This document shows, piece after piece, positions 8,985 through 43,910 of a stretch of 64,000 bases of DNA. A model generated the notes under the pieces. The model was not told where the DNA came from, did not search any database, and worked only from the letters and a program-made list of their open reading frames with translations. The number at the start of each line of letters is the position of its first letter. Positions within the stretch are counted from its first letter, which is position 1. The translations under genes were made by a program, and so were the position numbers. Source of the DNA: Yuukianura sp. NJ FZ-2021 (lineage: Eukaryota); NCBI GenBank assembly GCA_046563655.1, contig CM102283.1, positions 5,518,001 to 5,582,000 of the forward strand, given 5' to 3'.

Positions 8985-10168
8985 GGTTGAGGTTAGTTTA
9001 TTGGTTAAGCGAATTTAGTTCGGTTAGGCAAGGAAGTGAGTTCGGTTAAGCGAGGCTGTTTTGGTTAAACTATGTTTTGTAGATTGGGTTAAGTTTGTTT
9101 GTGGTTTGCTACGAGTGATTGGACTACTTCTGAAGTGACGAATTGCACAAGCCCCATTTATTTTTGAGTCTTTGTTTCAGTCCAAGGTTTTACGCAATCA
9201 CCAAAACCCAAAATCATGAAAAAACTTACAACAACCCCCACTCTAGAGATATTTTCCAATATGCAAATTTTTTGCAATATGGAGCTTGTTGGTTAGTGTT
9301 TTGAAGGCTCCTTTTAAAGTTTTATTAAAGTTAGTGTTAAAAGTCTACTGTGTTTGTGTGCCAGAAAGGAATTGGCTTAGTTTGGGCGTGGTGGGAAGGT
9401 ATTATGATTTTTGGTTTCTTCATAACCTTGGTAAATTCTAACAACCTAAAAGGATTTCCTCAACCAACCTGAAAACTTTAACATTTTCTTAATGGAAGTA
9501 ACTCAAAGTGTTTGATTTCCTAGCCGATACGATACATTACACGTCAGGTCGTGTCACATCCGGAACTTTTTTATGTTGTTCCCATAACTCACCTTAGGCA
9601 CAGTAATACGGAACGAACTTATCGATTCTTACCTTCAAAGGCTTTGCGCCTGCGTAGTGCTAACTTCCAAGCCTTTGAGAATGTGAATTGTCCTGTAGGC
9701 CTTCTGTATTATGCTGTTCGTCGTCCCCCTTGGGGCTACGGTTGGTGACCGTGACGAAGCTAAAGAATTGAGCCCTAAACATACACCAATTACATCAATT
9801 ACTAACGATCTGACACACGCCTACCCCTTGTCTTTTGCTTAATCTCATTTCGACGAAAGTTATCCCAGAGGCCACGCCCTGTTAAAGATCTCTTTTCGTT
9901 CACACTTTCTTACATCGGCTCCAAATTATGCCAAATTACGCCTAAGCCAACACATTTTTGACCTCCGCCGCTGCAATAGATTTTTCGATTTCGTGATTTC
10001 CTAATTCCTACTACTGATGGCCACTTTGGTTTAGAATTTGCCGTGACAATGGGCCCGCGCCAAGGTTTAAATTTTTCTGTAAATTACTTAGGTTAGGGGG
10101 TGGCTTTTGTTGACTTTCAGATTCAAATGGCTTGAAGGTCTAAACTTATCTGATGCTGGTTTTTAAAG

Positions 10169-21794: not shown

Positions 21795-24445
21795 TACAGA
21801 GCTAATGGTGATATTTGTATACGTTAGCTAAACCTTGTATGGAGTGAGTGTTAGCCCAGTATTTGAGGATAACATTCGTTGGTTTTTCAATGGTCTATGA
21901 ATTTTAAAGTTTTATCATGGAAATTTGATATCCTTCTTGAAAATTTCCGCTTCTCCTCGTTGTTTTGAAAAATCATATTTTGTTTTTGTATGTTTTAACA
22001 CTATTATGTTAGGAAATGTTACTCTCGTTAGGAATCCCTTTCCACAAAAAATACAGTTATCTTTATTTTGAGATGTTCAAATTAATTGTGGCATGTAAGT
22101 GTGTGAAGTGTTTTGTACCTTGACACTTTTGATTTTGACAAGAACTTATTGTGACATTTCGACATTTGTGATTGATAATTGTTCGTCTCAAATTCCTTGT
22201 CCCTTAAAACAGCTCGAATCTTATAGCCCAAACCCTTCCGTAATAACGATGTCCAACGGAATCGTCGCTCTGAACAAAATTTTTGTATGCTCTACTTCAC
22301 AGCAATCTTTAAACTACGGTGTTGCTCCAATGAATTCCTTAAGAAAAAGTTTCAAAATCGTTGGAAAGTATAAGCAAAAGATTTTTTTATGTGCTGTTGG
22401 ATTAGTTCCTAGGAAAAAGGTAAATTGTGAGATGCTTTGTTTTTTAAAGTCGTAAAATTTTGAAATTACAAGCAAATTTCGTCAACCCTCAGTCAAAGAA
22501 TCTGTTCGGGTTAAATTCACTGAAAGAATTTGTTTTCTGCCTGGAAATCCATGAAAACAAAATAAAATTGGCAAGTGAGCTGAGAAAATAACTTAACTTT
22601 CACCTAATAGGTGAAAGGTTTGGTTCAAAAGTTTTGGTTTTGGTTTAAAAGTAAAAGTCATTGGTCAACTTGACCAATTTGAACTGTAGTGAAAAAATTT
22701 CAGCTTGACACTCGATATATTTGGATGAAAGGTTTCAAAGAAAAGTCGTGTGGCTTATGCGTCGCACATTTATGAATATAAATCAAATGAAATGAAAAAT
22801 TTTAGCATGCCAGAATCAAACAATTTTGGAGTAGTACTATGATTTCCGCCGCAAACTTACAGGCAATGCTTCCCAGCGACTTTCTATAAACGGTAGAATG
22901 TCACAGTGGTTCCATTCTATTGTATCACTCTATCAACTGTCATTGTATCAACTGAATTGTCTCAAATGGAATTGCATCAACGTTCAGCAGTGACAACGGC
23001 TACTTGCATCACCGCACCTAATGAAACCTAACCTCGGCTCAATTAAGCTACACGCACGTTAAAACTATAAGCCGTTGACACAGTTAACCAGTTGACACAA
23101 TTTCAGTCGAAACAAGGCAATTTATCTCGCACAATTCAATAGACGCTTTCGCACATTTTGTGCATTTTTCCGGTGTGAAAACGGTTGTAAAAAAAATTGT
23201 ACAGAATCCTCAAACTTTTCTGTACACTTTTATTTCAACTTTGATTTAATTTTAGAAGCTTCATCCAAACCAAATTCTTTCTGGTCAATAAACCTCAATT
23301 TCGACTGAATTTCATAAAGCAAATGTATAAAATGTATCATTCGCAAGAAATGAAATCAAGCTAACCGCAGCAAATCTTGACAAATTACTAATTAAAAATT
23401 ACAAAGACAAATTGCAAAAAAAAACTAAAAGCTCACATATCACATTTTGTTTGAGTTCCACAGAAAAGGACCCACATGGTGATAATTTATAGCCAAATCC
23501 AAGACAATTTTAGCACGACTCCATGCTAGGCGTTGTGCTACGGATATTTAAAAAGTGCAAAATTTTAACTTGCGGGTGGAATTGATTAGTTGACGTTAGG
23601 TACTTATGTCGAAGTGGAGCAAAGCGGAACATCCTCTTGTCTATAAATCAGAAGACAAGACTTCAATGACACTCTTGGGCAAAGAAAGGTGATCCCATAA
23701 ATGTTTTGTAGAACGCCAAATCGTTGAGTCATCTTCTGACTCCCATTGTTTCCTGGTGGAGACGACCAGTCTCTCATGTCGTGCAAACTCCACAGTCATC
23801 CTGGTCGTCGTGAGAGACGTGAATCTGACTTTACCAGGGTATTCTGGACTCTGATCCCAAGGATCCTCTATCCTAAATCATCTCGCAAATCTTAATTATG
23901 GATCTGCTGAGAAGATGCTGCAGGAGGGTGGAGTGGGAACTTAAGTCTTCTCTCTCGTAAAGTCTCATCCTTGATCTCTGGGATCGTGGGAAAGTGTGGA
24001 GGGATGATTATGAAAACATTATGGACTCACTCCCTCAACACTTTGGATCCTCTTCAAAAATTCATCACGATAGACCAAATTAGCATAGAGAGCGGAGAGG
24101 GCGGAGTCACTATCTACTGGCTCCACCTCCCCACCAACTGCCCCACCCTGTTCTCCGCTCCAAGTGAAGCAGAAGCGCGGACAGGGGCTGCCTCTGCCTC
24201 AGGAGCACCCACTCAACTGGATCCACCGTACTTGGAGCCCTGGGATCGAACCCCGCTTCCTTCAACTGCCGTCCGGCTACTCCTCTTTCATCGTAAAAAA
24301 GTGAAGCAGTTCCCACTGAACTACCACAACTACTGCACCGCCGGAGCTACCTTAACCATCTACACACACCTACACAACAATAGGCGACGTTTAAAGTTTC
24401 TTGGAACAACAAGCCACCAACAGTGACACAGGACAATCAACCCAA

Positions 24446-26369
24446 ATGGACTTCACGACACGTAAGTCAAGTCGCCCACACTTGTGACTCACCTTTACAA
24501 GCTTGATTGTCGCCCTAGTTTCAATTTACAAGGAAAAGCATTTTTGGTGTACCTATTTCACTGAATTTACATAAATTGTCCTTTCACTTTTTCGAAATTT
24601 TGTCCTCCATTTCAAAATTTGAATTTCTAAGATCACTGTCTTGGCAAAGCAGGAAGAGAAAAATTTAAAAGAGGTAGAATTGGACCCTACGGTGGGTTTT
24701 ATGGTTTGAAGGAATTTGAACTGCAGGGTGGTTTTCACAGGGTAGTAAAAATTAAACTTGAAAATTAGTGTGATTACAGAAAGTAAAATTACGCACGAAA
24801 AAAATTCATTTTGAAAAAAAAAACAAGAAAATTTTGTTGTGGTGAAAGTTGACTTTCTCCAATGAGAACTTTTGAAGAAATTTCGTTCCATGCTTTGAGT
24901 TCTTTAATGTTAAGTTAGGTTTTTTAAAATTTTCAAATTTGAAATTCGTAAGAAACGTTAGGATTTCTTTCTACAAAAATTAACGTTTTTGTAGTTTCTG
25001 GAAACCAAGACGAGAAGCTGGAGACGCTAAACGCTGTTTCCGTCCAGAGCGCAGAATCCAGTTCATCTTCAGCAGTCGTCAATGGCCAGTTTCCGGCGGT
25101 TCCGCAGCACTCGGCCCTCTGGACTCAGCTTCTTCTGCTCCAGCAGCAGCATCAAACCCCCCTCCACCCCCAGCAGCATCTCTTCAACCCCCTTACGCAG
25201 TTCCTCCTCACAAGTATCTACTTGAACCACCTCAACCACCACCGACAACCCACCGATTTGTCTAAGAAGCAGACCCATGCCCCGCCGGCCCCACCGTCGT
25301 CCCACCACCCGGCTCCGCCTGCGCAGCGGTCGTCCAGGCCCAAGAAGCAGTTTATCTGCAAGTACTGCCAGCGTCAGTTCACCAAGAGTTACAATTTACT
25401 TATCCATGAGCGTACGCATACTGACGAGCGTCCCTACTCCTGCGACATTTGTAACAAGGCTTTCAGGAGACAAGATCATCTCAGAGATCACAGGTACGGA
25501 AATTCAGAAAAAACAATTGTTTTAACTTTTTTTATAATATAAAAAGCCACTCCTCGTCCACAGTGCAGGTAATGTGACCCACAAATTAGAGGGCGACAGC
25601 GCAGGCGCTAATCTCCGAATCTTAATTGCTCCCCAGTGGAATTAGGAAAGTAGGATTTACATCCTAATGGATCCTAACTTCTCGGGTTACAGGCATCCTT
25701 AACGTCTCCATTCCTTACAAGGCAAAAACCAACCCACACACAGGCACACGCAAACATTTAAACAAAAAGCCTCTCGTACAACTCTAATTAGACACACAAA
25801 ACTTACAAAATCACAAAAGTCACAAGAGTAAAAACAAAAAACAAAAAGCAGAGAGAAGATTTGAGAGAAAAAATTAACCCATTTTCATCCCCATTTCCAC
25901 CCCAAAACACAAACCACAGCAGAGTTTTTAAAGTCCAAAGAGATTTTAAACTTTGGAGAGAAATTTTGAAAACGAAGTTTGAGAAAATTTTTGTAAACGT
26001 TCTTGTAGGTACATCCACTCCAAGGAGAAGCCGTTCAAATGTACAGACTGTGGCAAAGGTTTTTGCCAGTCGCGAACGTTAGCGGTGCACAAGATTCTGC
26101 ACATGGACGAATCGCCGCACAAATGCCCCGTCTGTAGCCGATCTTTCAACCAACGCTCCAACCTCAAAACGCATCTTCTGACCCACACTGACCTCAAACC
26201 ATTTGTATGTCACTCCTGCAGTAAAGTATTTCGACGCAACTGTGATCTCCGGAGACACACGAGCGGAAATTGCGACAAAATGACTGCCCTCTGCACCTCA
26301 CATGGAAAACCATCACAGACTTCCAGTGCATCCTCGTCCTCTTTCCTCATCCGCGACTTGATTCAATAA
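24446..26369 (+). CDS. Odd-skipped family zinc-finger protein, gene A (odd/sob/bowl-like; exons 24446-24461, 24995-25493, 26009-26369)
   Basis: [65 protein letters not shown]... signature. Five fingers, the fifth ending H-x4-C; C-terminal eh1-like FLIRDLIQ. Exon phases are consistent. Exact orthology is not resolvable. Confidence 0.93.
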
Positions 26370-29300
26370 GTTATGAAAAAGAAAACAAACAACAAATTCT
26401 TTAAAAAGTTCTTTTCAGTTTAATTTATGTGTGTTTAATTATTCATCAATTCTGAAATTTGGGGTATCTTATTGGGAACTGTAAATAAATCGCTAGCCTT
26501 CTGGAAAATGATTGAGTCCAGATGCCGCGAATGTTTTCTGGGAACAAATTCAGTTTAAAAAGAAACTTCTTTTAAAAAAAAAGTGAGGGTGGGGAGTATA
26601 TTTGGACTTTATGAATGTATGTAGTATTTAGTACTTAGTATTTTGTTTGAAAATGATCTTGTTTGGTGGGGGCGGGGGAGTGAGTAGTGGTTCTGGAGTG
26701 ACCAGAAGATCAATTACATGCAGTATGTATAGGAAGATTGGGTTACGTAACATGAGAATACATAGGCTCGGCGGTCGTTGAAATCAAAGAAGTGAAAGAA
26801 AAAAGTGGTGTGCACACACGAGAGCTCCATTTTTCACACCACTGTTAACACGAACACTTTTTTCTGCAGAATTGCAAAAAGTGAAAGAATGTCGCTGTCA
26901 TCATTCAACTTTTTTTTCCTGTTCATTCAACTTGTGTGCAAAATGAGGAGCCAGTTGGATTTGAAGATAAAAAAAAGTAGTTGGGCAAACAGCTCAATTT
27001 GTTTTATGAGAAAACATGTCCATTTAAAGTGACTGTTGTCAATTTGTAGACCACAACTCAGAAGACAACTCCCACCAAATTGTTTTTACTTGTTTCACCT
27101 TTTTCAAAAAAGAACAATCTGCACGACGAAGCCAATTAAATCTGTCCTCAAGCCAAAAACCAGATTTTGGCACAACAAACTTCTGCAGTCAATTCTGCGA
27201 AGTGATTTTGCAATGCATGTCGAATTTCACAATGCAAGGAATTCATAATCAAAACTTTATAAAAGAAGAAACTTTAAAATGACAAAAAGAACTTTGAAAA
27301 CGAGAACCCAAATTGAAAACCGTCCATGAGAGTTAAAAATCAAAATTGGAAACCAAAATTAAAAACAAAAATTGGAAATTAATATTAAAGTTGAAGTTGA
27401 AAAAGTTCAAATGCATGAAAAAAATTTGAAATTGTTATATCACAGTTATGGAAAATGCTGCAGTTTCCAGTTCATCTTTGTTTGGATGAGAATTTGCAGA
27501 AGACAGTTACAAAATTCGAAAAAAAAAATGTAAATCTTTTGTTAGCGTAGAAACTTAATTATGAAAACGAAAAAGTTGAACTAGCTGAAAATCATGCAAA
27601 GAAAATGAAGCCGAAAAAAAATCGAGGTGGGAGGAAGTTACAAAACAAAATTTGTCAAAAAAAGTGGATAAAAAACAAAAGTCAAAATCTAAAAAAAAAT
27701 GAATGTTTCAAAATAAAAAAAAAAGTTGTGATGCTAGGAATCGTTGGAATTGCAGTGCGGGGGAAGAAAAGTTGCAGAAAACTAAAAATTGAAAACTCCA
27801 GCAATGATAATAATTGGAAACCGAAAAAAAAAACATTCGTAGGTTGAAAAACTTTTTTAAAAAAGAAGAAGAATGAAGCGATGAGTTGTTGAATTTATGC
27901 TGGAGTCTGGAGACGAAGAATTTTTTGAAAACGACCCCCTTCTGATTTGGAATGGACCTAGTGAAATCAAAGGTCAATTGACATGAAAAGGGAAACGTCC
28001 ATGGGGGGAGGACACGGTGCAGTCTACAACTTCTGTACCTGACACATTTCATTTCTCCTAATTTATCTCTTGTCTAAAATTTTAAAAAACTATTTTTTTT
28101 AAAAAAGAAGTTACAGTAAGACTCCAATAAATCCCAGAAGAAGCTCCTTTTTCGTTTTTCTGGTTGGTTTCCTTAATTTGTGGGGGTGATTGTTCATAAA
28201 CGGTGGCAGCATGACGTCCTTTTTTTCAAAACTACATTCCATGAGATGGAAAAATTCAAAGTCTCAGGTCACCCCAACCAGCACATCCAGCATAATCCCC
28301 ACACTTCACACCCAGAACGAAAAAGTCAGCAGGAGATAACATGCACAAGTCCATTGTCACCTCATCATGCGCAGTATGAATGGCAGTTGCCAACGGCACT
28401 ACCGCGTCTGCGCAAAACTCGTTTCTTGCAGAATTACATGAGTAACAAGTACTAAAGTAGGAATTTATGAGTCGTATGTCCCGAGTCAAAATAATTGACA
28501 AAGTTACCTTTGTTAAAGTTGGACAGGTTTTGGCAAAGGAGTGAAATAAATTGAAATTTTTTAATGGGTTTAGTACTAGTACAAAATGAGTAACTACTCA
28601 AAGTCTGAGCAAGATTTAGGGAGGAAAATTCAAAAAAAGGAGAGGATTATTACGGCTACTGACTTTTGACTTTTGTGGGCGCACCTTCTTCTGTTTTTTG
28701 AAACTGGATTTTTGGTGGGATGATTGACGGAGGCAGAGGGGGTACTTGGAAGGGACTCTTTCTGTCTCTTGTGAAGATCCTTGTAAGTTTTGAGGTAAGA
28801 ATGTGAGCAATCCTAATTAGAGAGCTAAGGTAGCCAAGAAGGAAGAAAAGTGATCTGTTGGGATGGTGAGGGTTTTTGGTGATTTGTGTAACGAGAGAGA
28901 GTCTCCTCGAGGCACACACCCTCAGGAACGACTAGCGTCCAGAGGTCAAGTCTCGGAATTCACCTGGATCCTTAATTTCTTGCTGTTTGGGAGAGGAGAG
29001 GTCGTGACCCCTTGGTTCTTTTCCCATGGTTCCCAGACATTCCAGAGGGAGTGAGGGGTGGGGGGAGGTCCAGTACACACGAGTCTCCCTTAGAATGCTC
29101 CAGTGTGGGGTTTGGTGATGACAAGTGGAACACAATGGGCATAGTGCACTTGGTACAATGGGAAGACTTGAAGGGAGCGGGGCCCTTTAGAGTGGTTGTG
29201 CCGCCTCGACATTCCTTATACAGAGAGACTCCTTTTTCCCACGCACAACAGCTCCAGAGGAATTATACACACACGCCTTTTTAAGTGGGTGGATCCCAAA

Positions 29301-29681
29301 GAGCAGGCAAAGGAGATCTCATGCAGTTTTTGAACAAACCGCGTACTTTATTTTCATTATGAAAACAAAACCGCAAAACGCCCATCTTCAAGTCCATTTA
29401 ACTCTGTCATAAACTTTCTTCGGTTTCAGCACGTCCCTTCCCTGCATTCTAAAACTTAAACGAACCCAAGAACCCTGAGAGCACGGAAATTTTGAGAAAA
29501 GTTTGAATGTACAAAATCGTCAAAAAAAAAACAACTTAGAATTGACATGCGTGTAAATATTTTGCGGAGATGGCGTACCGACAATATGAGTTGGCGTGAT
29601 TTGCTTTACTTTTATGCTACGATTTAAAAAAAAAACCAAAATTATTCGAAAAACAAACTCTTTGAGGGAAAATCAAAACTT

Positions 29682-29764
29682 GAGGAAATCTAAGGTTTTC
29701 TTTAGAGGAAGTGAGAGAAAGTGACTTTCCCTCACTTTTTCTAAAGAAAACCTTAGATTTCCTC
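29682..29764. repeat. 83-bp quasi-palindrome (40-bp arms, 3 mismatches)
   Basis: GAGGAAATCTAAGGTTTTCTTTAGAGGAAGTGAGAGAAAG-TGA-CTTTCCCTCACTTTTTCTAAAGAAAACCTTAGATTTCCTC. Confidence 0.9.
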
Positions 29765-30120
29765 CACTTATTGTTAAACCCTGGGCTCACAGACGGTTTT
29801 CGGATGTGTTGACCGCGGCTTTTGCGTGTGCGTGGCTAAGATGAGAGCTCTCATAAGGATCAGTTGGTCGTGTGTTGTAGTTGTATTGTTGTTTTGTGTG
29901 GGTGATGATTGTGGGGATGCTGGGGAAGATGAAATCCTGACTTGAGAGAGTGTCCCTTTTGACCTTTCCTTTTTAATGCATTGTCTCCTGGGCAGGTGAT
30001 GAGAAGAAACAGGGGAATTCAGAATGCCAGAGGATAAGGCATCAGGGGGCCATTCCTTCTTCTGTCATCTCATCATGTCACTCCCTCCAAATAATCCAAG
30101 TCCACCTAAACATCTCACAC

Positions 30121-30446
30121 TGGGTCAAAAAAGTCAAGGTACATTACCAAAAAAATACTGTGGAGTGGGTCAAAAAAGTCCAAAGTTAGAAAAACTCTGT
30201 GGTAAAAAAACCCAAACTACAAAAACCCGCCAAAAAAGTCAAAGTACAAAACAAATCAGTTCGAAGCGGGTCAAAAAAGTCAAAAGTACAAAAACGCTCG
30301 GTTGGGTTTTTAAAGTTTTCGAACCAAAATTTCTCAAAATTAGTCACCGTGCCACTGGAGCGGGTCAAAAAAAAGTCAGAGTACAAAAGTGGGTCAAAAA
30401 AGTCAAAAGTACGAAACAAATCAGTTCGAAGTGGGTTAAAAACGGT
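30121..30446. repeat. Irregular array of ~6-7 GGGTCAAAAAAGTCAAAAGTAC-type units
   Basis: Units near 30121, 30166, 30228, 30268, 30361 and 30390; two are followed by AAACAAATCAGTTCGAAG. Confidence 0.8.
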
Positions 30447-33400
30447 TAAAAACGACTTTAAGTAAAAGTACATAAAAGTTGGAAGTAAAAGTCCAAAAAA
30501 GTGGTGCGTCTTGGCGTCGTTAATTGAGGCTGTGACATTTAATTTGTACGTTGGTTGTGTTTTGGGTTGAGTGGGTTCTTGTCACCTAACCTTAACACTG
30601 GAACTTACCCTAGTGAGCTGGATGCTGAAGGTGTGTCTGTTGGATGTTGAGGTGTTGGGACCACTTAAGCTTGTGTGAGGTCCAAGTGGACCCATAAACC
30701 CCGCTTCCCCCTTCTTCTGCAGCCTCTTAAGCTGCGTGTGTCGTCGTGTGTCCACCTTATCTTCCATCGCAAGAACATCTTCTGCGTGGCGTGTGGCACA
30801 GAGCCAGTGTCAACCTAAAACCATTATTACACACAGGAATTCAACTGCAACAATTTATACTACCAAACACAACAAACAACTCCATTTCAAACACATTTCC
30901 AAATAAAAACGTTATTCTCTTTTTTAACTACGGTCGTTTCAGTAGCCTCCTCCATAAATTGTTTTTGTTTTTACGAAGCAAGGAAATTCATAAATTTTAA
31001 GTTTTTCGAAAAACGAGACAGGAAAGGTAAAGAGAAGAAGATATGTTTTTTTTTCTTTAAAAAAACAACTTGGAAGATTTTTGACCCGATTTAAAAAAAA
31101 TGTAGTCCGAGCAGTTGCTCTGAATTTGTTTGTTACTTGGGTAGAGTAGAAATAAATTCTGAACAAAAAAATTTTAATTCACGTACCTCCTGTTTCATTT
31201 ACATGACTAATTTCGAAAAAAAAAAAACTTCTAAAATTCAAAATCAAAATGTAAGTTTAAAAAAAATCAAAATCTTTGGAAAGACAGTTAGACCGAGGAG
31301 CCTGTCTTTTTTTTTGCTGGTCAGGCCAAAAATGAAATTCTGAAGACAATGAAGATTTTTGTTTTTATTTTCTTTCGTTTTGCTTACTAATTTCAAAAAA
31401 AGAGATTCTGCTAAAATTCTACTGTATTTTAATACGAATACGAAATAATAAATACATAATAATAATACAGTATACTAAATACATTGTTGAGTTTCTAGAA
31501 ACCACTCAGTAATTTTGAGAAAAAAGAAATTCAACTGAGGAGTTTGTACTATCAGTTAGGAGGTTTAACAGTAGTTCGGTATTGCTTGGGCTGAAGGAAA
31601 ATTCTGGAGAAATCGAAAATCTGTGTCAACCATATTTTCAAAATTGTCTCTGCTCAAAGTCTAGCCTATTTTTTTTTAAATCAAAATTTTAAAATGTAAA
31701 ACAATCAAAAAGCAGATGAATAAATTTAAAAAAGTGAACAAGATTAAGTGTAGTGACGCATGAGGGATGATGGTGAGAAGACAAAAGGAGAATTGACGTT
31801 TGTGAGGATTGGAAATCCGACGTTAGAAGATGACACTAAAGTGATGTGAAGTTTTGAACGGTTCGTCCCCCTGGGGGATAAGCCCTTATACAACTGACTC
31901 CCACTCTCAAGGGCCTCAGTGGGCCCTTAACTTTTTAAAGTCACTTGTCAATTTGTGGTTCACGTGGCGTGTTAATTCCTTTTAATTCAGGTGACCAAAT
32001 ATGAAGTTCTGTTCGGATTTTTACTGAGGATGTCACTGGGGTTGCATAGAAGAATGCATCTCTAATCATTCCGATTTCACTCGGTTCTCTGGGCTGCCAC
32101 ACACGGCGGGAGATTAAAATCCCGCAGACACCTCCTCACTCGTCCATTCCGAACAATAAAGTCCGATGACAACAACATTCCCCAACAGACTCAGTGTCGA
32201 CGCGTGCGGCCTCAGCCGAGCACCAGAGATGGACACAGAATGCAGAGATGGGCATCGAATGGACTTTAGATGGGCAGGGACTTTGGCTTGGGAATGTTCC
32301 TGGAGATAGGATCAAAGGCACAGTTGCCGCTCCACTCAAGATTCAAAGTGACACGGAGATGAGTTTGGCGCATTTACAATCTCCAACTATCTTTAGTAGC
32401 ACCGTCATAACCTAATTAACATAACAAACCCAACGGAACAATTACCAGGCCTCAGTCATGTCATCCAGTGGGTGGAGATGGTCACGGGAACGATCCTCAC
32501 TTTCGGTTTTTTTCTTTTTTGGATTCGACACTTTATGGTTTCTTACTTTACGAATCTTTTGTTCCTTTGGAATTCCTCGGATCATCCTGACACTTTGTAC
32601 AAATTCGATTCAATTGTTGAGCTCAATTGAACAAACTGTTCTGGAATTCACCTGTTGCCTACACCACTTCATCTGTTCCGTACTCGCAGGGGGCTTTATA
32701 TCCTCAGGTTCAAAGTTCATCTTACAAACAACTTCCAAAATTCAAAAATTCAGATTCCTCAAAATTCCAGTTTCATTTTAACATTTTCATCCAATCCTTC
32801 CGAAAATTCCAGTTTTTAATTTTCTACTCCATTTCAAGAAGGAAATTACAGCAACTTATTTTCAAAATTGTTGTGTGTTTTCAGAACTAATTTTTGTTGT
32901 TTGGAGTTTCGAAGCTCGTGAAAGTTTAACTTCTGAAATTCAATTTGAATTTCAAAATTTTGAATTTGCTTTTTGGAAGTTGAGATGGTAAGACTTCTCT
33001 GAAGTTCAAAACACAAAAGAGAAAGTTTTTGGTTTTGGCCAAACGTTAAATGTGTTTTGGTGGTAATTGAACAGCTCAATTTAGCAATCACCTCGGAGCG
33101 TTTCTGTTCCTTTGTAAAAGGCAATTCCGAAGGAGCAATTCTGAGATGTTAGCCTAATTTCACACTGTAATTGATGCTAAGGGTACCCAGTGCCCTTATA
33201 TGTAAGGTACTGAAAATGATCCTCTGAAGATGAAACTGAAGTGCAACGTGGGAAATTACAGAGGCAGTTAATAGTTCTGAGCTTACTTTATTACGTACAT
33301 TTCAGATGCATTCGTAGTTCAAAGATTAGTTTTCTAATGCTGCTTTCACACCTCGAATCACCTTAATCTCTACATGAAATTGAAGAAACACAAATTTAGT

Positions 33401-34643
33401 AAGATCAGAAAAGCAATAATTTTGAAGATGTGAGCAAAAATTTAACATGAATTTTGCATTACATTTTTAACAGATTGTTGACTTTCTCTGAAGTATCAAG
33501 CACTTGAATTAAGATTTTGAGTTTTTTTTGTTCAAATTAACTAACTTTTTTTTTCATGTTCCTTTTTCGTTTCTTTTTATTTGAAATCCTTTCAATATAT
33601 TTTTTTGAATCATCCATATGAACAAAGTACCATAATTTTTTCTCGGCTTCTGAAATCATGGTGCGATGGAGCAAGTAAAAGGGACGCGCCCACTGTAATT
33701 GTTTTTGATGGTTTTGCTGCCTCATCCTCCGCATCCTTCCGTCACTGTTTTCCCCCCACAATTACACAATTCTTTGAGCAAACTTCCACTTTCCGCCTCT
33801 GTCACTTCGTGCTGAATTGGGTACAGACACAGATTACTTGGGACAGATCACACAGGAAAAGATCTCTGTTGATCTGGGGATTTAATTAAAAGCAAACACA
33901 AGATCATAAAAGTTAATTGCAACGGACAGCATTTTCAAATGCCCCACCTTTGACCTTTCCCCTGCCTTCTCTTTTGAAACTTCCCGATGGAATCTTTAGA
34001 ACTTACACAGTATAGGCGAAATTCGGACAAGATTTCTCTTTGAATTACGAGACGACACGATGGATGGACAGAGCTATGAAACAGACGGAGTCAGTTTTAC
34101 TTCAAATTTGAATTTTGGATCCCAAAAAAATTTGGAATTTGAAAGAGTCAAATTTCAAGCAGATCCCCACCCATAAGGAAAATTTTTGACGTGGAAATTG
34201 ATGCCAAAAGTTGTCCAAGTGCCAATCATCGTCTCTTTTTTGTTATGTGCAATTTGAGAATTTTCGTACGCCTTCTGAAAGTCTTGCTGACATCAGCCAA
34301 TGCCTACTCGTCAAAAATTGAATAATTTTTCCAAATCCTGCAATTTGAGTCTGTAAAATGTTTGTTGCCAAAGAAGGCGTGGTTGGATTTTGTGAATCGT
34401 AAAACGAGTTTTATTTATTATTTTATTTATTTATTTATTATTGCACTCAAATAAATTCCGTTTTATTTCAAAAGACGCTCTTTATAAATGCTCTATGTAG
34501 TACGGTTATTTGCTACTTTTTACATGGTTATAATTCTGGTGCGGTAAGAATGAGGAAGCAGAGGGACCCTGTGTGCAGTTAGGAAAAAGCGGCAAAAGTT
34601 GAGGAGATGCGACACTGCAAAAGTGTTGAAAGATGCGACATTT

Positions 34644-35196
34644 TTAGTAGAACTGCGTCGGTGATGATGAGGAAGATGAAGAAGATGAGGAGGAAGACGA
34701 TTCGGATGAAGTGCTCGGACTGTGTTGGGCTCTGGAAAATAAAGACATAAAAATTCAAAATTTTAATTTTGGATTGTTTTTCAACTGCCAACTTTCAAAT
34801 TTCCAATCATTTTGGAGTTTGAAGTTTATGGACCACGTTTTATGAGTTTGAGACTCAAAAAGGAAAAGGATGAGCAATTTGTGTCGTTTGAAATTTTTTT
34901 TTCCAAGTTTTTTTCGTTCCTTTTTTGGAAGTGATTTTGACCTGTTTCAAGTTTCAAGATTCAAAAAGTTCATCAATTACTCACCTATGGATGAGGAGTG
35001 AGTCCTTGGACTTGTAGCTCTTGTAACAGAGGTCACAGACGTGTGAATGATGTGACCTTTCATGGATCATGAGGTTGTAGCTTTTGTTGAAGATGCGGGA
35101 GCAGTAGCCACAGTAGTACTCGTATTTGATTGGATTTCGAATGTACCGAGTACTTGGCTTCCGTACAAACTCAACTTGTTTTAGTATAGTGTACAT
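34644..35196 (-). CDS. drm: Drumstick-like two-finger odd-skipped family microprotein, 99 aa (exons 35196-34985, 34731-34644)
   Basis: MYTILKQVEFVRKP...YEYYCGYCSRIFNKSYNLMIHERSH-HSHVCDLCYKSYKSKDSLLIHR|AQH, then poly-Ser. Short two-finger architecture and YNLMIHER are drm hallmarks. The phase-2 intron is at the same HR position as in the two paralogs. Confidence 0.8.
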
Positions 35197-37224
35197 TTTG
35201 TTTTGAATCTTTAGCAAAGTGTAAAGTTCACAAAAAGTCACACTTTCTTACACCCAATTAACTTTTTTTTGTGAGTTGCAAAATTGGAAAGTTTTAATTA
35301 CAAAATTAAACACACCCGCCGTCGCACAACCTGCAATTAGGCTCCCAATTTGCAAATTTTTGCAACTGCGTAGTCGTTTTTATGCCAAACCCTAATTTTG
35401 GTATGTCAGAGTCGTAAGTGGGTTGAAGATGAAGCGTCGATGGAACCTAAAACAATACTAATCCCAGCGGAGATCTCAAATAAAGGAAATTTCAGTTTGT
35501 GTGGCTTTTTGAGAGCGTCTTCAAGTACGGCACACCACGAAAAACGTTTCAACTCCCCTTGACTATTTGAAGTTACAGAAAAGAGGAGGGAAGATTCAAA
35601 AGTTAGTCGACGGAAGGCTGTGTCCTGTTTACATTAGGGGTGGAGCCTCAGCTAACAGCGGATGACGTCCCACTCTTATATGCCCTGAAGTGACCACACC
35701 CATCCGCTTTTGTTCTTTTGATTAAAATTAAAGTGTTACAAAAACAGAAATTAAAAAAGTTTCAAGTTGGTAAAGCTTTTTGGTAAAAACTATTTTCATG
35801 GAAAAGTAATTTTTACACAAGGTGAACAAATCTGTGCTGTCTGGGGAGGGTTGAAACTTTCAACTTGAAAGAAGATTTTGGAACGGAAATGTGATCATCT
35901 CACTTTCGGAAAGACAAACATCCCGTTTTGTACATTTTCAACACATTTCCCACTTCCTTTTGTTGACACGTTGATGTCAAAGTCAAAGTGGAATTTGAAG
36001 TTCTCGTGTCTCCCGCCTTTTTTGGTGACTTGTGATAAAAAACGATTCCGAAATTCAATTACTCCCGCCCAGATTAGATTTTTCGTCGTAGTGCCGTTAT
36101 CATTCTGCTCCATCACCCCCACCTTCTGCTGCTTTTAGACAGGGGAAAAGTCAATTTGGGGTTTTGTACCCCCGGGGGTTAGTTTTCCCCTTTGACCTTT
36201 GCTGTTTGAAGCGCACCATCTCATTTCCGTGTGTCTTGTTTCCTATTTGCATGATGGAGTTGTGTCTTTGATCATGCCAAAATAACAATCGACTCTTGTG
36301 CAAAAGCCCTTAAGCCAAAATCCATCCGTGTCAATTTGAAAAGCCTTTGAAAGTTTGGTTGAAGATTTACGATTATGGGAACAATTATTATCGATCAGGA
36401 GGAATCACTTTGATCGTCACGATCATAAGTTCTGGCGACCCAATGGGGTCAAACTCAACTTCATTTTATGCAAATTCAAAATTTTGATGGCAAGAGAAAG
36501 TTGTTCAAGATTCGACTTTTCTGAAATTACGTTGTTAGTAATTTGCTCTTGTTAATTGATGTTGATCGAAGATCTTTGGTACAGAACCAAACGTGAAGCT
36601 CCTTCAAATTTATATACGAAATTGTTTTTACAACGACAACAGTTGTAAAGAAATTTGCGCAACTTCTGAAAATCCCATTTTAAAGTTCCTGTTCATTCCA
36701 CTTGCAATTTGCAATTTAAAATGAAAAATTCCAATCATTTCGTGTTGTATGGTTCAAAAATTTGGCAAAAAAAAAATTACTTTCCCCAGTTCTTCTGCTG
36801 TTGTGTGTTACAGAATTGGGGAAAGCAGATTTGTATATCCGTAAAAAGCCATTATCTCCTTCAAAAATGCCTTGTAACTAACGAAATATCTTAAAAAAAA
36901 GAAGAATATCTCGATTTCAACAGGTTTCGGATATTTAGTCGAGTTTTTGATTTATCCAGGTATTTTTAGCGAAAGCAAATGCTTCACTATGGTCATTTCA
37001 TCTTCTTCATGTTTTTAGTTCACAGATTGTGAGTACATCACAATTTCACAATTTGTGAATGCTTCGATGAAGTGATCTTCGCGGTAAAGGCAACAGATGA
37101 AATGTGCCTGTGTCACCCTCTATGAAGCCAGAATCTTAACGCTTCAATACACTTTACACTGTAAACACCTACTCTACTGCTATAGTACCACCTTTGTTAT
37201 TAGATTGAAACCAACTTATTCATT

Positions 37225-37238
37225 TGACCTTTTGACCT
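37225..37238 (-). promoter_or_regulatory. Perfect nuclear-receptor DR2 (AGGTCA-aa-AGGTCA) ~0.8 kb upstream of the OATP ATG
   Basis: + strand TGACCTTTTGACCT. Function is not demonstrated. Confidence 0.4.
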
Positions 37239-38017
37239 TGTCGTCTGTTTCCTAATTCCCACTAATTTTTACTTGTTAACGATACAACAATACCAGGATA
37301 TTCCCAATTTCGTCTCTAAAGGGAATCGACGTAATACATGCTACATGCGTTTAATTTGTCAGAAATAAAAATCCCAGGTCTGCGTCTGACGCTTTCACTT
37401 TATAAAGATACTCCCTCGAAAGTCCAATGTTCTGGAAGTGGAGTAACGAAATTCATTTCAATCCATATCTAACAAATACATCTTGAATTCTTTGCATCGG
37501 GCTCTTATAAAGTGTTATATTAGAGCATAATAAGAATTCAGAGAAATTGAACACTTAAGAATGAATAGACTGCGTAAAGTGTCTCCCACTCTTTTTTGTG
37601 CCCATCTACTTCGTATTTATGAAAATATGAATAGGACATGACCACATGAGTCTCCTTAGTTCTCCTTGTGGCTTTTGGAACTGGTTGTTGTTGGTTCGAT
37701 TGATGGAGATGGAATTAATCGACTTGCACGATTCGCGAAATGAGGGTTGACGCTTGATCCAGCTAACGACGGACACCAACGACGACAACCAGGATTTTGT
37801 AGAGTCGACGCAGGAACAACATTTCCAGGAACCAACAGGTTGGTTGCTACATGCATTATAAGAAAATTGCAACTAGTGCTATAGGAAAACTAAGTTTTGA
37901 TTTGTCAATGATAGCCAAATCAACAAAACGTACAAGACTGGCGTTGCGAGATTCGTGGTGGACGTCGTTTAGTCCGTTTTCCATGTCGTGACAAAACTCG
38001 GAGATAACTGCAACAAG

Positions 38018-41000
38018 ATGACCAAGTTACAGGCGGATGAGCCAGAACCCGACACGAATGTTGCTGCACAGGAGCTCACTGCGTTCATCAAACCCGTTTC
38101 GCTTCCGGTTAAGCATGAGGTATGACTGGAAAATTTTAGATTGATTGGTCCTGTTAAAAATTTTGTTTCATCCTTCCAGCCGTACGGATGGGCTGGATTT
38201 TCTTCTGGAGGAATTGCACCAGCCTGGATCCAATTCCTCAATAATAAGAAGGCTTTTCTTATAGGTACGTTGATCATACACGTTTCTTATAGGTACTATT
38301 TAACTTCAGCTGTTGGGGCCGAAGTGTTTCTAACGATGTCATCTGTATTAATTTGAATTTTGTATTTTTACAGTTTACTCTCTAACGACTGTTCTTCAAG
38401 GAACTTTCCACACTTATTTTGTATCTGTCATCACAACTCTCGAAAAACTATTTTCGATTCCATCAAGAACAACTGGCATACTTATGGCCACCACTGAAAT
38501 TGGACAGGTACTGATATCCGAGGCAGTGAAAGTTTCAATCTTTGAATGTAGAAGAAAGATCATGAGATCCTCATATTCATTCATTCATCTCAGAAGTATT
38601 TCCGGAATTTTAGGTCTCCTCGTCACTTCTCCTGCCATATTTTATCTCGTCTGGTCATCGTCCGCGTTGGATGGGATTTGGCACTGTTGTTTTTGCTTCA
38701 GCAACGTTGTTAACGGCATCTCTCCACTTGATTTTACCTCCGGTGATTTCCGGTCCAGCTCCGGAGAAGGACTTCTGTTTACATGACGACTCACAATGCA
38801 AGGAAGAAGCATCTACGAATGTCCTATTATATCTTATCCTCAGCATATCTCTTCTGTCTATTGGATTTGGCCAAACAGCAGGTACGAACATACATTTGAC
38901 GTTAACATTTTGTTTAACCTAACCTTAATTTACTAACTAAATGAAGTTCGTTTGGTGTGAAGTTTACACCCTTGGAATACCATATCTGGACGACAACGTT
39001 GGGAACCGTGACAGTCCGGTCTATTTTTGTGAGTTTCCTCATCATATTACGCAATTATGAATTCGATACACGATTTTTACGAATTTCGTTTACAGCAATT
39101 ACTATTGGAGTCCGAATTCTTGGCCCGGTAATGGGATTTATCCTTGGATCTTTTACAACAAGGCTTTACATTTATCCATTGATTGATCCAGGCTACGATC
39201 AGTCAAATCCACACTGGTTAGGTACGTCAAAACTCAAGAACTTTTGGAATTGGTTGTCATTTACTTATAATTTCGTTTGATTCTGTTCAGGTGCTTGGTG
39301 GCTAGGAATGCTGATAATTAGTGTTCTGCTTTTTATGATCGCCATATTCCTATCCGGATTCCCCAAAGTTTTAAAAACATCGAAGTCACACGTCCATGAA
39401 AATGAGGCCAAGGGACAACAAGAGTTTGCTTTAGGAGTTAAGGGGCCAACGTTATCCATGGAGTTGATACCACCCATTGAGCAGGATGTTGCTAATGGAG
39501 AGGCATCAGAAATTAAGGGGAACGGAACTTCAAATGAAGCTCCTGGCGATCCAGAATCCACTGAGAAGTCTGGAATGCTGTGCAGCATTGAGGAAGGTGT
39601 TTCCAAGGAACCGGGGAAGGTGCTCGACACTAGCAAGACTGACAGTGGCCGTCCCTCCCTTCGAAACTTTCCAGCAGCTATTAAAAGACTACTTTTAAAT
39701 CGTACGTCAAGTTAACTTAACCAGTGAAATACTTTGTAAACTAATTGCAGTGTTGTGTTTCAGGAATTCTCATGTTAAGAACACTTTCAAGTGTGTTTCA
39801 TCTACTGCCTATCAGCGGACTCTACACATTCCTCCCGAAATATCTGGAGTCGCAATTTCAACTGACTGCTGCAGATGCTGCCATGCTTACGGGGATACTT
39901 GGTAAGTATTCTCGTGTGTAATAGGTGACCAATGACAATCCTGAACTTAAGACGCTGTTTTTCTAGGTATTCTTGTGATGGGTCTTGGCATCTTGGGTAG
40001 TGGCTGGTTCATCCGTCGATGGTTGCCAAGTCCCAAGGGACTCGCTATGTGGGTTGCAGTTGCCGCTGGGATTTATGCCGTCGGCATGTTTGGTCTCGTT
40101 TTTGTAGGTTGTGACGGAAATCAAGTCGTCGGTGGCGGAGATTTCGAATCGATTTCACCTGGGTACTGCATCTATCAAATGTGGCATTGATTAAATCCTA
40201 ACTGTAATAAGCGTTTCTTTATGATTCCAGTGCTTCCTGTCAGCCATGTAATTGCAGCCAGACTGATTACATGCCACTATGTGGATCTGACAACATACTG
40301 TACGTCTCTCCGTGCCATGCAGGGTGCACTGTTGCTCTTAACAACGGAAGCGTGGAGGTATTCGACTTAATTATAAACGGAAAGGACCATGTCATTCCTA
40401 TTCTTGTTGACAGTACAAAGATTGCAGTTGTGTCGTCACCGCTCCACATTCAGCCACGCCATCACTCTGCCCCCTCAACTGCTCTAGATCAAATCTGGTC
40501 ATCTACTTTGTCATCTTCATAACGATTGTGCTCGTCCATTCGACCTCAGAAGTGGGATCTATGCTCCTGACACTGCGATGTGTTGACAAGCAAGACAAGG
40601 CGATGGCACTGGGATTGGTTCAGTTCTCGATCGGACTGTTTGGAAACGTCCCTTGTCCCATTCTGTACGGATGGCTGGTGGATAGGAACTGCTCTCTCTG
40701 GGGCAAAGACTGCCATATGAACAGCGAAAATTGTTGGCTCTATGATAACAGAGGCTTTCGAGAAGTATTTCATGGTGGGTAAAAATTCAATTACAGTGAA
40801 ACCTCTCATTCAAAAACTTCGTTTTCGTGGCTGCTAAAATTGAGGGAATGCCAACGTTAGACGCACGAGCTGTTGATGCTATGGGTGGACCAATGCCTCA
40901 AAAGCACTGCGCTCAGAAAGATTACGGTAGGCGCGAAAAACTTGAAAGAAGAAACCTATGAGAGAGAGTTTCTGAATGAGAGGTTTTGCTGTAACTTTTT

Positions 41001-41149
41001 TAACTTATTTCAATTTTTCAATAGCGAAATGACATTGCTAACTTTCTAATTTTCTGGACTGTATAGGAACCACAGCGGCGCTGATGTTTGTCGCGTTTTT
41101 CTTCGACCTTGTAATCTACTACTTGGCGGATGACATTCAGTTCGAATGA
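38018..41149 (+). CDS. Oatp74D: Organic anion transporting polypeptide, Oatp74D / Ecdysone Importer-like, multi-exon
   Basis: TYFVSVITTLEKLF, GHRPRW, GQTAVYTLGIPYLDDNV, RILGP, WLGAWWLG, RTLSSVFHLLPISGLYTFLPKYLESQF, a Kazal-like PLCGSD...SPCHAGC, and VHSTSEVGSMLLTLRC...GLFGNVPCPILYG all match the Oatp74D clade as I recall it. Stop TGA at 41147-41149. Confidence 0.88.
40794..40991. mobile_element. MITE (Tc1/pogo-type) in the last intron of the OATP gene
   Basis: TIRs CAGTGAAACCTCTCATTCAAAAACT / AGTTTCTGAATGAGAGGTTTTGCTG with a TA target-site duplication. Confidence 0.85.
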
Positions 41150-41567
41150 ACGTTTCTTTTAAATGGTGCCCATGACCAGTGTCACGTGTGATAAAGTGAA
41201 ATACGTTTTCAATTGAGAGCTTTATTATTTCAACAAAACGAACCGGTATCTTAAATATTTTAATCTATTTTATTAAAAACTTGTTTTATCCTTTTGACTC
41301 AATTTATAAATACCTTACAATTCCTAAACATGATTGTTTGTCGCCGTCAACAGATTCAACCTTTGGCAAATATTCAACAGTTTTCCTAACACTGGACGAA
41401 ATTCCTAACCTGACTGTTGACCCCTTCATCCCCACGAAAAGTTAAACTTAAATTCTAAGTATACAAGGTTACTTTTCTAAAAGCGAGTGATTGTCCAAGT
41501 CTTAAACCCTGAAAATGTAACAATTTAGGGAGAATGGCACTGAAAGTCTGTTCGTTCTCTTTCCGTT

Positions 41568-42466
41568 TTACCGCCTCATGATTTCGTCTATGCTAAATCC
41601 TAGTTTGGCACTACTGGACCCAGTTGGAGCTACTTCAGCTTCCGGAACGGACGGTTCTTCACTGTCTTCAGCATCTCCGCCTCCAACAACGTCAATTTCA
41701 TCTTCCTCGGCAATGGAGTGCGTGAGAAGGTGTCTCCGGAGATCACAGTTGCGTCGAAATACTTTACTGCACGAGTGACACTCAAATGGTTTGAGGTCAG
41801 TGTGGGTCAGAAGATGCGTTTTGAGGTTGGAGCGTTGGTTGAAAGATCGGCTACAGACGGGGCATTTGTGCGGCGATTCGTCCATGTGCAGAATCTTGTG
41901 CACCGCTAACGTTCGCGACTGGCAAAAACCTTTGCCGCAGTCTGTACATTTGAACGGCTTCTCCTTGGAGTGGATGTACCTACAAGGAAAAATTCAAGGT
42001 CATTTCAAAGTTTTATTTTTGGAGTTTGAATTTTGAAAATTTTGTATTTTTTTTTTAGATTTTCGTACCTGTGGTCTCTGAGGTGATCTTGTCTCCTGAA
42101 AGCCTTGTTGCAGATGTCGCAGGAGTAGGGACGCTCGTCCGTATGTGTACGCTCATGGATAAGTAAATTGTAGCTCTTGGTGAATTCTCTTGTACAGTAT
42201 TTACAAATGAACTGTTTCTTAGGTCTGGAGGAGGGACGTGAAATGGGTTGTGGAAGACTGGCAGTAGTTGGTGGGACAGCGGTGGAAGATCCCGGTGGAG
42301 CTATGAATCCGTAGTAGAGGTAGTGCAGTTTCTCGGACTCCATGACATTTGAAATGGACGGTGGCGCTGGTGGCTGTGGTTGAAGGATTTTGGAAGAATG
42401 CGGATGATGAAACGCTGAAACATGGCTGGTCCCACCGGGACTTCTGGAAGAATTCAGTGGAAACAT
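41568..42466 (-). CDS. Odd-skipped family zinc-finger protein, gene B (sob/odd-like; exons 42466-42069, 41979-41568)
   Basis: Five intact C2H2 fingers with the odd-family signature and a C-terminal eh1 motif [11 protein letters not shown] typical of Sob/Odd. An in-frame stop upstream of ATG 42466 supports that start unless there is an unseen upstream exon. Confidence 0.93.
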
Positions 42467-43419
42467 GTCAACTTCCTGGACGCCTCTTCACGAACTTTTC
42501 CTACGCCGTACTGCTTCGACTCTTCAATGAAGAAAACAAAGGAGGAAACTTGGAATGTAGCTCCGTTTGTTGCTCGGATCCGCCAAAGTAAACTCAAGAC
42601 TCGTTTGATGACTTTTGAAGCTGCTCCAATGGCACTGCTCACTTCTCCCAAAGTGACAATGACAAAGTGGACGGTGGATCAATTAGACTTTGAGTGTTAT
42701 TTGTGTAATTAATTAGGAGTGCCTGATGCAGAAGAAGCAAGAACAACTCTGGCCTGGCCTTGATGAATTGTTCTGTGGACCAACCTGTCCTCTTTGTCTG
42801 ATGGCGATGGGAGAAACAAGAAGCCACCAGAAGATGCACCTTAAGAAGATGATCCATCCCCGTTGGATTCCTTCGGATGGATTCCAATCCTCTTTTTGCT
42901 CCTCCGTCTTTGGCTCCTGGGTAAAATCCTAACTTTTTTATGATCTCTGCATCCACTACAGGTAGCATTCCTTCCCATTCTTATAATGGCAAGTAGCAGG
43001 AGCCAGAGAAGCTACCTTAACAGATTTCAATAGGAAGCCAAACCACCACAAAAACTAACCACACCTTGACTCTCGTCTTCTCGAACAAGTCCAAAGATCC
43101 ACAAGGAACTTACTATGCTCCAATGTCCAAACAATGGGGAAATCAACCCTACATCCAAGAAAGTTACTTCGTTCCACGTTCGACGTTCACCCACAACCGA
43201 ATCCAACCTTACAAAAACAAAACAGGTACACCGGAATGTCGATAAGTAGCGATAGATTAGCCGCAATGCACCGTTAAAAGCGGTAACTATGCACAACCAT
43301 TGTGAAACGGCTGACGAAGAAGTTAACCTGTGACCCAGCAGGCCACATAGCTTACACGAAAGTTCGTTTCGAAATCTACGAACTTTTGTATATGTCACTT
43401 TCCGTGTTACCGGGAATGA

Positions 43420-43610
43420 AACCGGCTGACCTTGACCTTTAACCCATCTGGGTACTACTCAATGATGGTCAACTGGAGTTAACAACAACATCCTGAGGTC
43501 AACCGGAGTTAAACGGTGAAAGTAATCCCGGAAATGTTGAACCGATTCCGAGATAATTGCGCTAACGGACGGCCAGACAGACACACACGGTCGATTCATA
43601 ATGTAGATTT
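43420..43610 (+). mobile_element. Probable non-autonomous Helitron/Helentron-derived element (HINE/DINE-1-like) fragment
   Basis: TGACCTTGACCTTT repeat, CCGAGATAATTGCGCTAACGGACGG followed by a CAGA/CA microsatellite and an ...ATAATGTAGATT end, an architecture typical of these elements. Confidence 0.5.
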
Positions 43611-43910
43611 AGCTTTCGCTACTTAAAGATTCGAGGTATGGTGTAACACGTTCCGTTGACGACAAACATTTAATTGGAAATCACTCATTTCATTGAAACA
43701 CAAAAAATAAGTATCGGCTCAAAAATAATAACTTACGACGTTAAGGCTAATGACACTAATTGCTTTGGATGGATTAAATAAAGGAACCGTCTTGTTCTGT
43801 TGAAAACGAGGCGCGTGCGCAGTGGGAGAAGAAAACACAAGAGTGAGAGATAAATTGTTAGTAAAGCTGGCGGTAGTTCCGACTACAGCGATTTCTGGAG
43901 TATAAGCTCA

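Follow-up and report, generated by a model that had tools for sequence, protein, structure and literature searches.

We analysed a window of 64,000 nucleotides (nt) of Yuukianura sp. NJ FZ-2021 (assembly GCA_046563655.1, contig CM102283.1, positions 5,518,001 to 5,582,000 of the forward strand), which has 39.7% G+C and contains no N. It carries two C2H2 zinc-finger genes, hereafter A and B, that are convergent (tail-to-tail), with their stop codons around 15.2 kb apart. Judged from their sequences, both are members of the Odd-skipped (Odd/Sob/Bowl/Osr) family. Large parts of their finger-coding exons are nearly identical in DNA, and the rest of the two genes cannot be aligned. A previous sequence-only reading of the window had taken this to mean that the DNA-binding exons of two old paralogs are repeatedly homogenised by gene conversion. 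Our analysis leads to a similar view: the pattern is likely explained by interlocus gene conversion between old Odd-family paralogs, in two or more tracts that differ in age.

The coordinates of the genes and of the homogenised tracts are given in Table 1. The predicted protein of gene B has 269 amino acids and five canonical fingers. The 5' limit of the first modelled exon of gene A is provisional, the likely acceptor being the AG at 24993-24994, and its donor follows position 25493. Since the open frame of this exon has no ATG, gene A is expected to have at least one upstream exon outside the model. Such a first exon was not found by tblastn with 120 homologues, which gave no match upstream of 24950. 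An open frame of 171 amino acids at 23911-24426 was considered as the upstream exon and rejected, as it has no Pfam match and is not coding-like.

Table 1. Features of the two Odd-family genes, of their homogenised tracts and of the small gene between them (positions in the window).
Feature	Position	Strand	Remarks
Gene A exon, N-terminal A-specific region and fingers 1-2	24995..25493	+	open frame from 24952; Pfam zf-C2H2, E 1.9e-08; tblastn matches from 120 homologues
Gene A intron, 515 nt, separating fingers 2 and 3	25494..26008	+	GT..AG, phase 2
Gene A last exon, fingers 3-5 and short Ser-rich tail with a ten-residue eh1-like motif	26009..26369	+	stop TAA 26367-26369
Gene B exon 1, N-terminal region with Tyr-rich motif and fingers 1-2	42069..42466	-	ATG 42466
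Gene B intron, 89 nt	41980..42068	-	position and phase as in gene A
Gene B exon 2, canonical fingers 3-5, acidic DEIDVVG motif, ten-residue eh1-like C-terminal motif	41568..41979	-	stop 41568-41570
Start of the finger region, homologous in A and B but not converted	25330..25377	+	partner 42185-42232; 16 of 48 nt differ
Putative older homogenised tract, gene A, end of the finger 1-2 exon	25378..25493	+	partner 42069-42184
Putative older homogenised tract, gene B	42069..42184	-	partner 25378-25493
Putative young converted tract, gene A	26002..26258	+	partner 41730-41986; from 7 nt inside the intron to inside finger 5
Putative young converted tract, gene B	41730..41986	-	partner 26002-26258
Perfect core, 154 nt	26052..26205	+	partner 41783-41936
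Third gene exon 1, one canonical finger and the start of a second	34985..35196	-	ATG 35196; donor AG/GTGAGT at the family's intron position
Third gene candidate exon 2, completes finger 2 (H-x3-H), poly-Ser tail	34644..34731	-	prediction, pattern scan

Several lines of evidence place genes A and B in the Odd-skipped family. All four of their exons match Pfam zf-C2H2. A word-indexed homologue search with gene B exon 1 as the query gave 2002 significant proteins among 2440 candidates, of which the best 120 were listed. The specific matches among these 120 carry the names "sister of odd and bowel" or "bowel", come from insects, springtails, an ostracod and a barnacle, and reach at most 94% identity in the fingers; none of the 120 is near-identical to gene B over its non-finger part. 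When searched against the window with tblastn, they match at three places only: gene A, gene B and around 35 kb. The protein of the finger block is 82-91% identical to that of the full-length metagenome loci introduced below, and the phase-2 intron between fingers 2 and 3 breaks the protein at DH/R in A and B as it does in nine of these loci (L003, L011, L013, L017-L019, L023, L024 and L037). Of the 88 family homologues, 54 have a motif of the eh1-like form F-x-I-x-x-[IL]-[ILM] within their 30 C-terminal residues, and both genes end in one (FSIDEIM-RR in gene B, FLIRDLI-Q in gene A). Going by the literature on the motif, those of A and B would be of the Groucho-recruiting type; according to an excerpt of a PLoS Genetics article (PMC5402979), which refers to Goldstein et al. 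2005, Bowl has a repressive motif of the eh1 type. Finger 5 of gene A (26241-26282) lacks the last zinc-binding histidine and reads RRHTSGNC, with a cysteine at H+5. This histidine is kept in 81 of the 82 homologues, and the sole exception, P0048 of Orchesella, also has a nearby cysteine. From its sequence, finger 5 of gene A may be a C2HC variant.

A repeat search of positions 24000-44000 identified two pairs of inverted arms shared by the genes. The longer pair, which corresponds to the young tracts of Table 1, has 257 nt of which 253 are identical (98%). The other pair (25330-25513 and 42049-42232) has 184 nt at 85% identity, with 27 differences. The counts given in the sequence-only reading were recovered when we compared the copies base by base. 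The longer arm has exactly four mismatches (26051, 26206, 26207 and 26216) and includes the perfect run of 154 nt, and 25378-25498 differs from 42064-42184 at seven of the 121 positions (25389, 25416, 25422, 25449, 25452, 25479 and 25488). Each of the seven falls on a third codon position and leaves the protein unchanged. Immediately upstream, a stretch of 12 residues shows synonymous differences in 8 of its 12 codons when read from both sequences. The longer arm includes the splice acceptor, as had been claimed, extending 7 nt into the intron, and the agreement abruptly drops to chance outside both of its ends. The introns differ in length as reported, and introns, flanks, N-termini and C-terminal tails are indeed unalignable: with blastn, the two introns gave chance-level, weak A-rich matches only (the best being 43 nt at 72%), and the 3-kb flanks gave nothing above 15-17 nt.

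The composition of the third codon positions (G+C at these positions, GC3) also differs between the unique parts of the two genes. It is 0.72-0.88 in the N-terminal part and first finger codons of gene A, 0.56 in its tail, and 0.38-0.44 in the unique parts of gene B, with intermediate values of 0.53-0.66 in the parts common to both. We therefore rejected a recent duplication of the whole gene, given this difference between the unique parts and the chance-level similarity of introns and 3-kb flanks.

To describe the divergence along the finger block, we compared the codons that specify the same degenerate residue in both genes over its alignable length, and computed the synonymous divergence (dS) by the Nei-Gojobori method. 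In the first 16 finger codons (25330-25377), 4 of 14 codons are identical, which is the background level described below, and synonymous sites are saturated. The remainder of exon 1 has 28 identical codons out of 34 and a dS of 0.43 (7 synonymous differences at 21.3 sites). In exon 2 up to position 26258, 78 of 80 codons are identical and dS is 0.059 (3 differences at 53 sites), and the core at 26052-26204 has no difference at all among 34.7 synonymous sites. The amino-acid differences in the whole finger block are limited to Q/T at codon 14, Q/E at codon 16 and V/E in finger 5. Hence, the profile of dS along the genes, which the sequence-only reading had proposed as a check, is stepwise and not uniformly low.

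We assessed the clustering of the differences with our own permutation test, of the GENECONV type, on 130 comparable codons. Nineteen of them differ, and the longest identical run has 52 codons (p = 0.00045). In a likelihood ratio test with one change-point, none of 20000 permutations reached the observed value, and an even spread of the differences is thus rejected. The best model with two change-points gives segments with 10 of 14, 8 of 49 and 1 of 67 differing codons. When the split is preset at the intron, the exon-1 and exon-2 tracts differ with Fisher p values of 0.0085 for codons and 0.011 for third positions. The first divergence step is very secure, and the second is moderately secure. 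The claim of tracts of different ages is in line with these results, which show no fewer than two levels of divergence (dS 0.43 in exon 1 against 0.06 in exon 2, Fisher p around 0.009).

How unusual is such a similarity for finger DNA of this family? A scan of metagenome contigs gave 46 loci, the best of them with 68% protein identity over the full length of the query, and there is hence no sister species among them. We compared 30 gene copies, including the two of the window, in 392 comparable pairs. Where the residues agree, the codons are identical in a share whose median over all pairs is 0.40 and whose 95th percentile is 0.55; the window pair reaches 0.86 (110/128). The only pairs above it are L017/L018, L004/L005 and L016/L017/L018, in which a single species seems to have been sampled more than once. 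As a rule, the silent sites of finger DNA are thus not constant. One 110-kb contig of another organism carries two inverted (head-to-head) Odd-family genes around 7 kb apart (L008 and L021), and these share 45 of 103 codons. As this is the background level, adjacency alone does not homogenise the finger DNA.

The same comparison bears on a rival explanation, namely that selection acting on the nucleotides themselves, by way of an exonic enhancer, an RNA structure, a microRNA site or extreme codon bias, has kept the two copies alike with no exchange between them. Few parts of the family are indeed as conserved as the fingers, and the two genes have similar, intermediate GC3 values in the parts that they share. 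Yet, the adjoining 16 finger codons are saturated synonymously though their protein is nearly identical, the identity also takes in 7 nucleotides of the intron, and of the 28 outside sequences none has more than about half of its codons in common with either copy (the share never exceeds around 0.55). We regard this explanation as extremely improbable.

We then consulted public sequencing data. Five DNA runs from two studies carry the locus, with word shares of 0.15-0.47. For four of them (X1 to X4), Logan contigs were compared with the interval 24900-42600, and 40 of 976 differences, 32 of 1171 pieces and 15 of 28 joints were listed. The contigs of these four runs, which represent both studies, cover the locus including both genes. 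Their many differences from the window indicate that they come from close relatives or from other individuals. At 26002, where the repeat begins, X1, X2, X3 and X4 all have T and not C. At 25332, 25338 and 25353, three synonymous positions within 22 nt, gene A carries the letters of the window's gene B in X1, X3 and part of X4, and the window's own letters in X2, although X2 shares its sample with X3 and X4. These B-like letters are either ancestral variation or the trace of an exchange at the 5' edge of the homologous block. None of the 15 joints listed changes strand between the arms.

These data also address the possibility that the similarity was created by the assembly, i.e., that mis-mapped reads made diverged copies look alike during polishing. 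The length of the longer arm is within or close to the span of a short-read pair, and the evidence from the runs is at the level of contigs, which leaves some room for this explanation. Nevertheless, four differences survive in the young tract and seven in the older one, polishing cannot raise copies with around 40% identical codons to 98% identity, and the locus is covered in the contigs of four independent runs. The contigs of X2 and X3 start at 26235 and 26223, near the 3' end of the repeat, as in the de Bruijn assembly of shared sequence, which is a weak point against an artefact. An artefact is accordingly very unlikely, if slightly less so than selection on the nucleotides.

A third explanation is a recent partial duplication or exon replacement, in which a single structural event, and not repair driven by homology, copied the exon of fingers 3-5 from one gene into the other and perhaps, at an earlier time, the end of exon 1. 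The young tract is of the size of an exon, running from the splice acceptor to the point where the tail of gene A diverges, and the outcome of such an event would be hard to tell from that of gene conversion. However, the position and phase of the intron are ancestral in both genes and in many of the metagenome loci, neither junction scars nor duplicated DNA in the flanks came to light, and the two levels of divergence would need two events. Exon replacement thus appears improbable, though it is the least improbable of these three alternatives.

The paralogs had been described as old, and this is supported by the saturation of the first 16 finger codons, by introns and tails that cannot be aligned, and by the fact that the tails are of two conserved ortholog types. 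The C-terminal part of gene B has an acidic motif, D-[VI]-D-V-x-G, and the terminal motif G-F-[ST]-I-D-E-I-M-R-R, both of which recur in L001, L002, L008 and P0037. Gene A has no acidic motif, and its ten terminal residues are most like those of L009 (...SSFLISDIMK), P0064 of Allacma fusca (...NFLISDIIKN) and P0048 of Orchesella dallaii (...GFLINDII...), the last two being springtails (collembolans) of different orders. A word search for orthologs of the gene A tail, using residues 76-119 of the last exon, gave three candidates, none of them significant.

The fingers give another picture. In a maximum likelihood tree of the exon-2 finger DNA (26 rows, 246 columns, quick search), A and B are sisters with a support of 95 in the Shimodaira-Hasegawa-like approximate likelihood ratio test (SH-aLRT). 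Only 0.022 substitutions per site separate the two, and every other sequence is at a distance of at least 0.86. The residues D, F, H and S at positions 67, 119, 122 and 125 of the alignment are common to A and B and rare in the 26 others. Hence, finger DNA pairs A with B whereas the tails match different ortholog types, the tails themselves being too short for a tree. As the two copies pair in this tree, phylogenies based on fingers would be misled, as the sequence-only reading had expected, and the homogenisation of the finger exons is the conclusion on which codon shares, permutations, dS and the tree agree.

Taken together, these results make interlocus gene conversion between the two old tail-to-tail paralogs, with at least two tracts of different age, the likely explanation. 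The divergence profile and its non-uniformity, flanks devoid of homology, tails of two types and fingers that pair in the tree are direct observations; from there, we infer how the breaks were repaired, how many events there were and in which order, and that both genes are expressed and functional. The process might have taken place as follows. Strong purifying selection on the five fingers would keep the coding DNA of the two genes similar enough to pair. A double-strand break in one copy would then have been repaired at least twice with the other copy as a template, and with no crossover. An older event would have homogenised the end of the finger 1-2 exon, and one or several recent events the part encoding fingers 3-5, while promoters, N-termini, introns and C-terminal tails would have stayed separate. 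As the introns have no homology, each tract would be confined to one exon. The 257-nt tract ends exactly where the A-specific sequence starts in finger 5, which suggests that its 3' border is the limit of homology. Given the inverted orientation of the genes, a crossover would invert the 15-kb interval and not delete it. Conversion templated by cDNA is unlikely and was rejected because the intron between the converted exons is kept in both genes. We found no clear signal of GC-biased conversion, as the GC3 of the shared parts lies between the native values of the two genes.

Some observations weigh against this interpretation. The second divergence step relies on few sites (7 differences against 3-4), the Fisher test on all nucleotides gives a p of only 0.04, and the second change-point falls after 26051 and not at the intron. 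The evidence from the runs consists of contigs, and short-read polishing could have erased a few true differences within the 257-nt tract. A search of public runs gave no RNA run carrying the locus, and the expression and splicing of genes A and B are thus predicted. The within-species pairing of the fingers is established relative to distant metagenome sequences only. Finally, L009, which has a tail of the A type, groups with L001-L003, of the B type (support of 96), and the orthology suggested by the tails has therefore no counterpart in the finger signal. This indicates that in that group, too, the finger block does not tell A orthologs from B orthologs, and it may reflect an old homogenisation there as well, or a duplication that is younger than the tails suggest.

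The sequence-only reading had also proposed that conversion keeps the DNA specificity of the two proteins shared. The homogenisation on which this idea builds is well supported, but the functional role is not needed, since fingers that are 82-91% identical to those of distant taxa show that purifying selection already preserves specificity. It is more likely that conversion is a by-product of the conservation of the fingers than a means of keeping specificity. A more speculative idea is that conversion is ongoing and polymorphic, and belongs to a concerted evolution of the finger exons of the Odd family that has long been under way in this hexapod lineage. It is suggested by the B-like letters at 25332, 25338 and 25353 in other runs and by the position of L009 among B-type loci, and we consider it doubtful at present. 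If it were true, the orthology of odd, sob and bowl based on fingers would be systematically unreliable in these taxa, and the borders of the tracts would move within populations.

The interval between genes A and B contains a third, small zinc-finger gene, which accounts for the tblastn matches around 35 kb. Its first exon is 33.7% identical to fingers 1-2 of gene B (E 4e-11). The candidate second exon was the only one found in a pattern scan of the 6 kb downstream, and the predicted product would have around 99 amino acids and two complete fingers, with an intron of 253 nt between the exons. A word search gave no homologue of this gene, and a HMMER search, whose 7270 hits were swamped by long poly-finger proteins, was uninformative. 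From its sequence, the predicted architecture recalls that of Drumstick. Drm is a protein of around 81 amino acids with two fingers. Also between A and B, positions 29677-29769 hold a near-perfect inverted repeat of 46 nt that can form a hairpin (89% complementary, with a spacer of 1 nt). At 32940-32975, the contigs of all four runs often break or turn to unrelated sequence, and several joints skip the place, which is probably a dispersed low-complexity repeat. Outside the pair, the neighbours are NPC1 (N-terminal and middle luminal domains) at 44330-49983 on the minus strand and, at 10144-12573 on the plus strand, a gene with peritrophin-A chitin-binding and polysaccharide deacetylase domains. 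These neighbours are consistent with an arthropod source.

In Drosophila, drm, sob and odd are clustered in the genome. The locus described here resembles the fly genes in that its members are close together, one of them is predicted to be very small with two fingers, and an eh1-type motif is present. The excerpt of PMC5402979 treats odd, sob, drm and bowl of Drosophila as one gene family. Our comparison is between the locus and the fly genes as a group, and makes none of A, B and the small gene a one-to-one ortholog of odd, sob, bowl or drm. In the literature searched, which consisted mostly of titles and the starts of abstracts, we found no report of gene conversion or concerted evolution in the odd-skipped family, the fly genes included.

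The closest known case is that of Dlxa and Dlxb in Capitella teleta. According to an excerpt of McDougall et al. 2011 (BMC Evol Biol 11:241, PMC3199776), these genes are tail-to-tail and otherwise divergent, but their homeobox is identical up to and including 12 nt of the intron and 98.4% identical overall, a pattern that was examined with GENECONV and is ascribed to gene conversion. The same excerpt reports that the pattern is missing from other species with the same arrangement, and cites hexapod engrailed/invected as another case. The case resembles A and B in several respects: closely linked inverted paralogs encoding transcription factors, near-identity including silent sites that is limited to the region of the DNA-binding domain and makes the genes mosaic, and an identity that enters the intron, by 12 nt there and 7 nt here. 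The differences are that the Capitella genes have a homeobox with one level of identity, whereas A and B have C2H2 fingers with a three-step profile, enclose a third member of the family and are spaced by around 15 kb. As for engrailed/invected, Peel, Telford and Akam are said to have described in 2006 how the conserved domains of these inverted transcription factor paralogs are homogenised within hexapod lineages, confusing their orthology. That system differs from ours in belonging to another gene family. Conversion at this locus is therefore a known process in a family for which we found no earlier description, and not a new mechanism, the pattern having been published for Dlx and for engrailed/invected.

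The locus offers a clean and quantifiable instance of conversion confined to the exons of the DNA-binding domain in paralogs encoding developmental transcription factors, with nested tracts that would be of different ages. It matters for the family since the orthology of odd, sob, bowl and drm across arthropods is usually judged from these fingers. Trees built on the finger block, or reciprocal best hits, would wrongly call A and B a recent, lineage-specific duplication. Their orthology is better judged from tails, introns and synteny.

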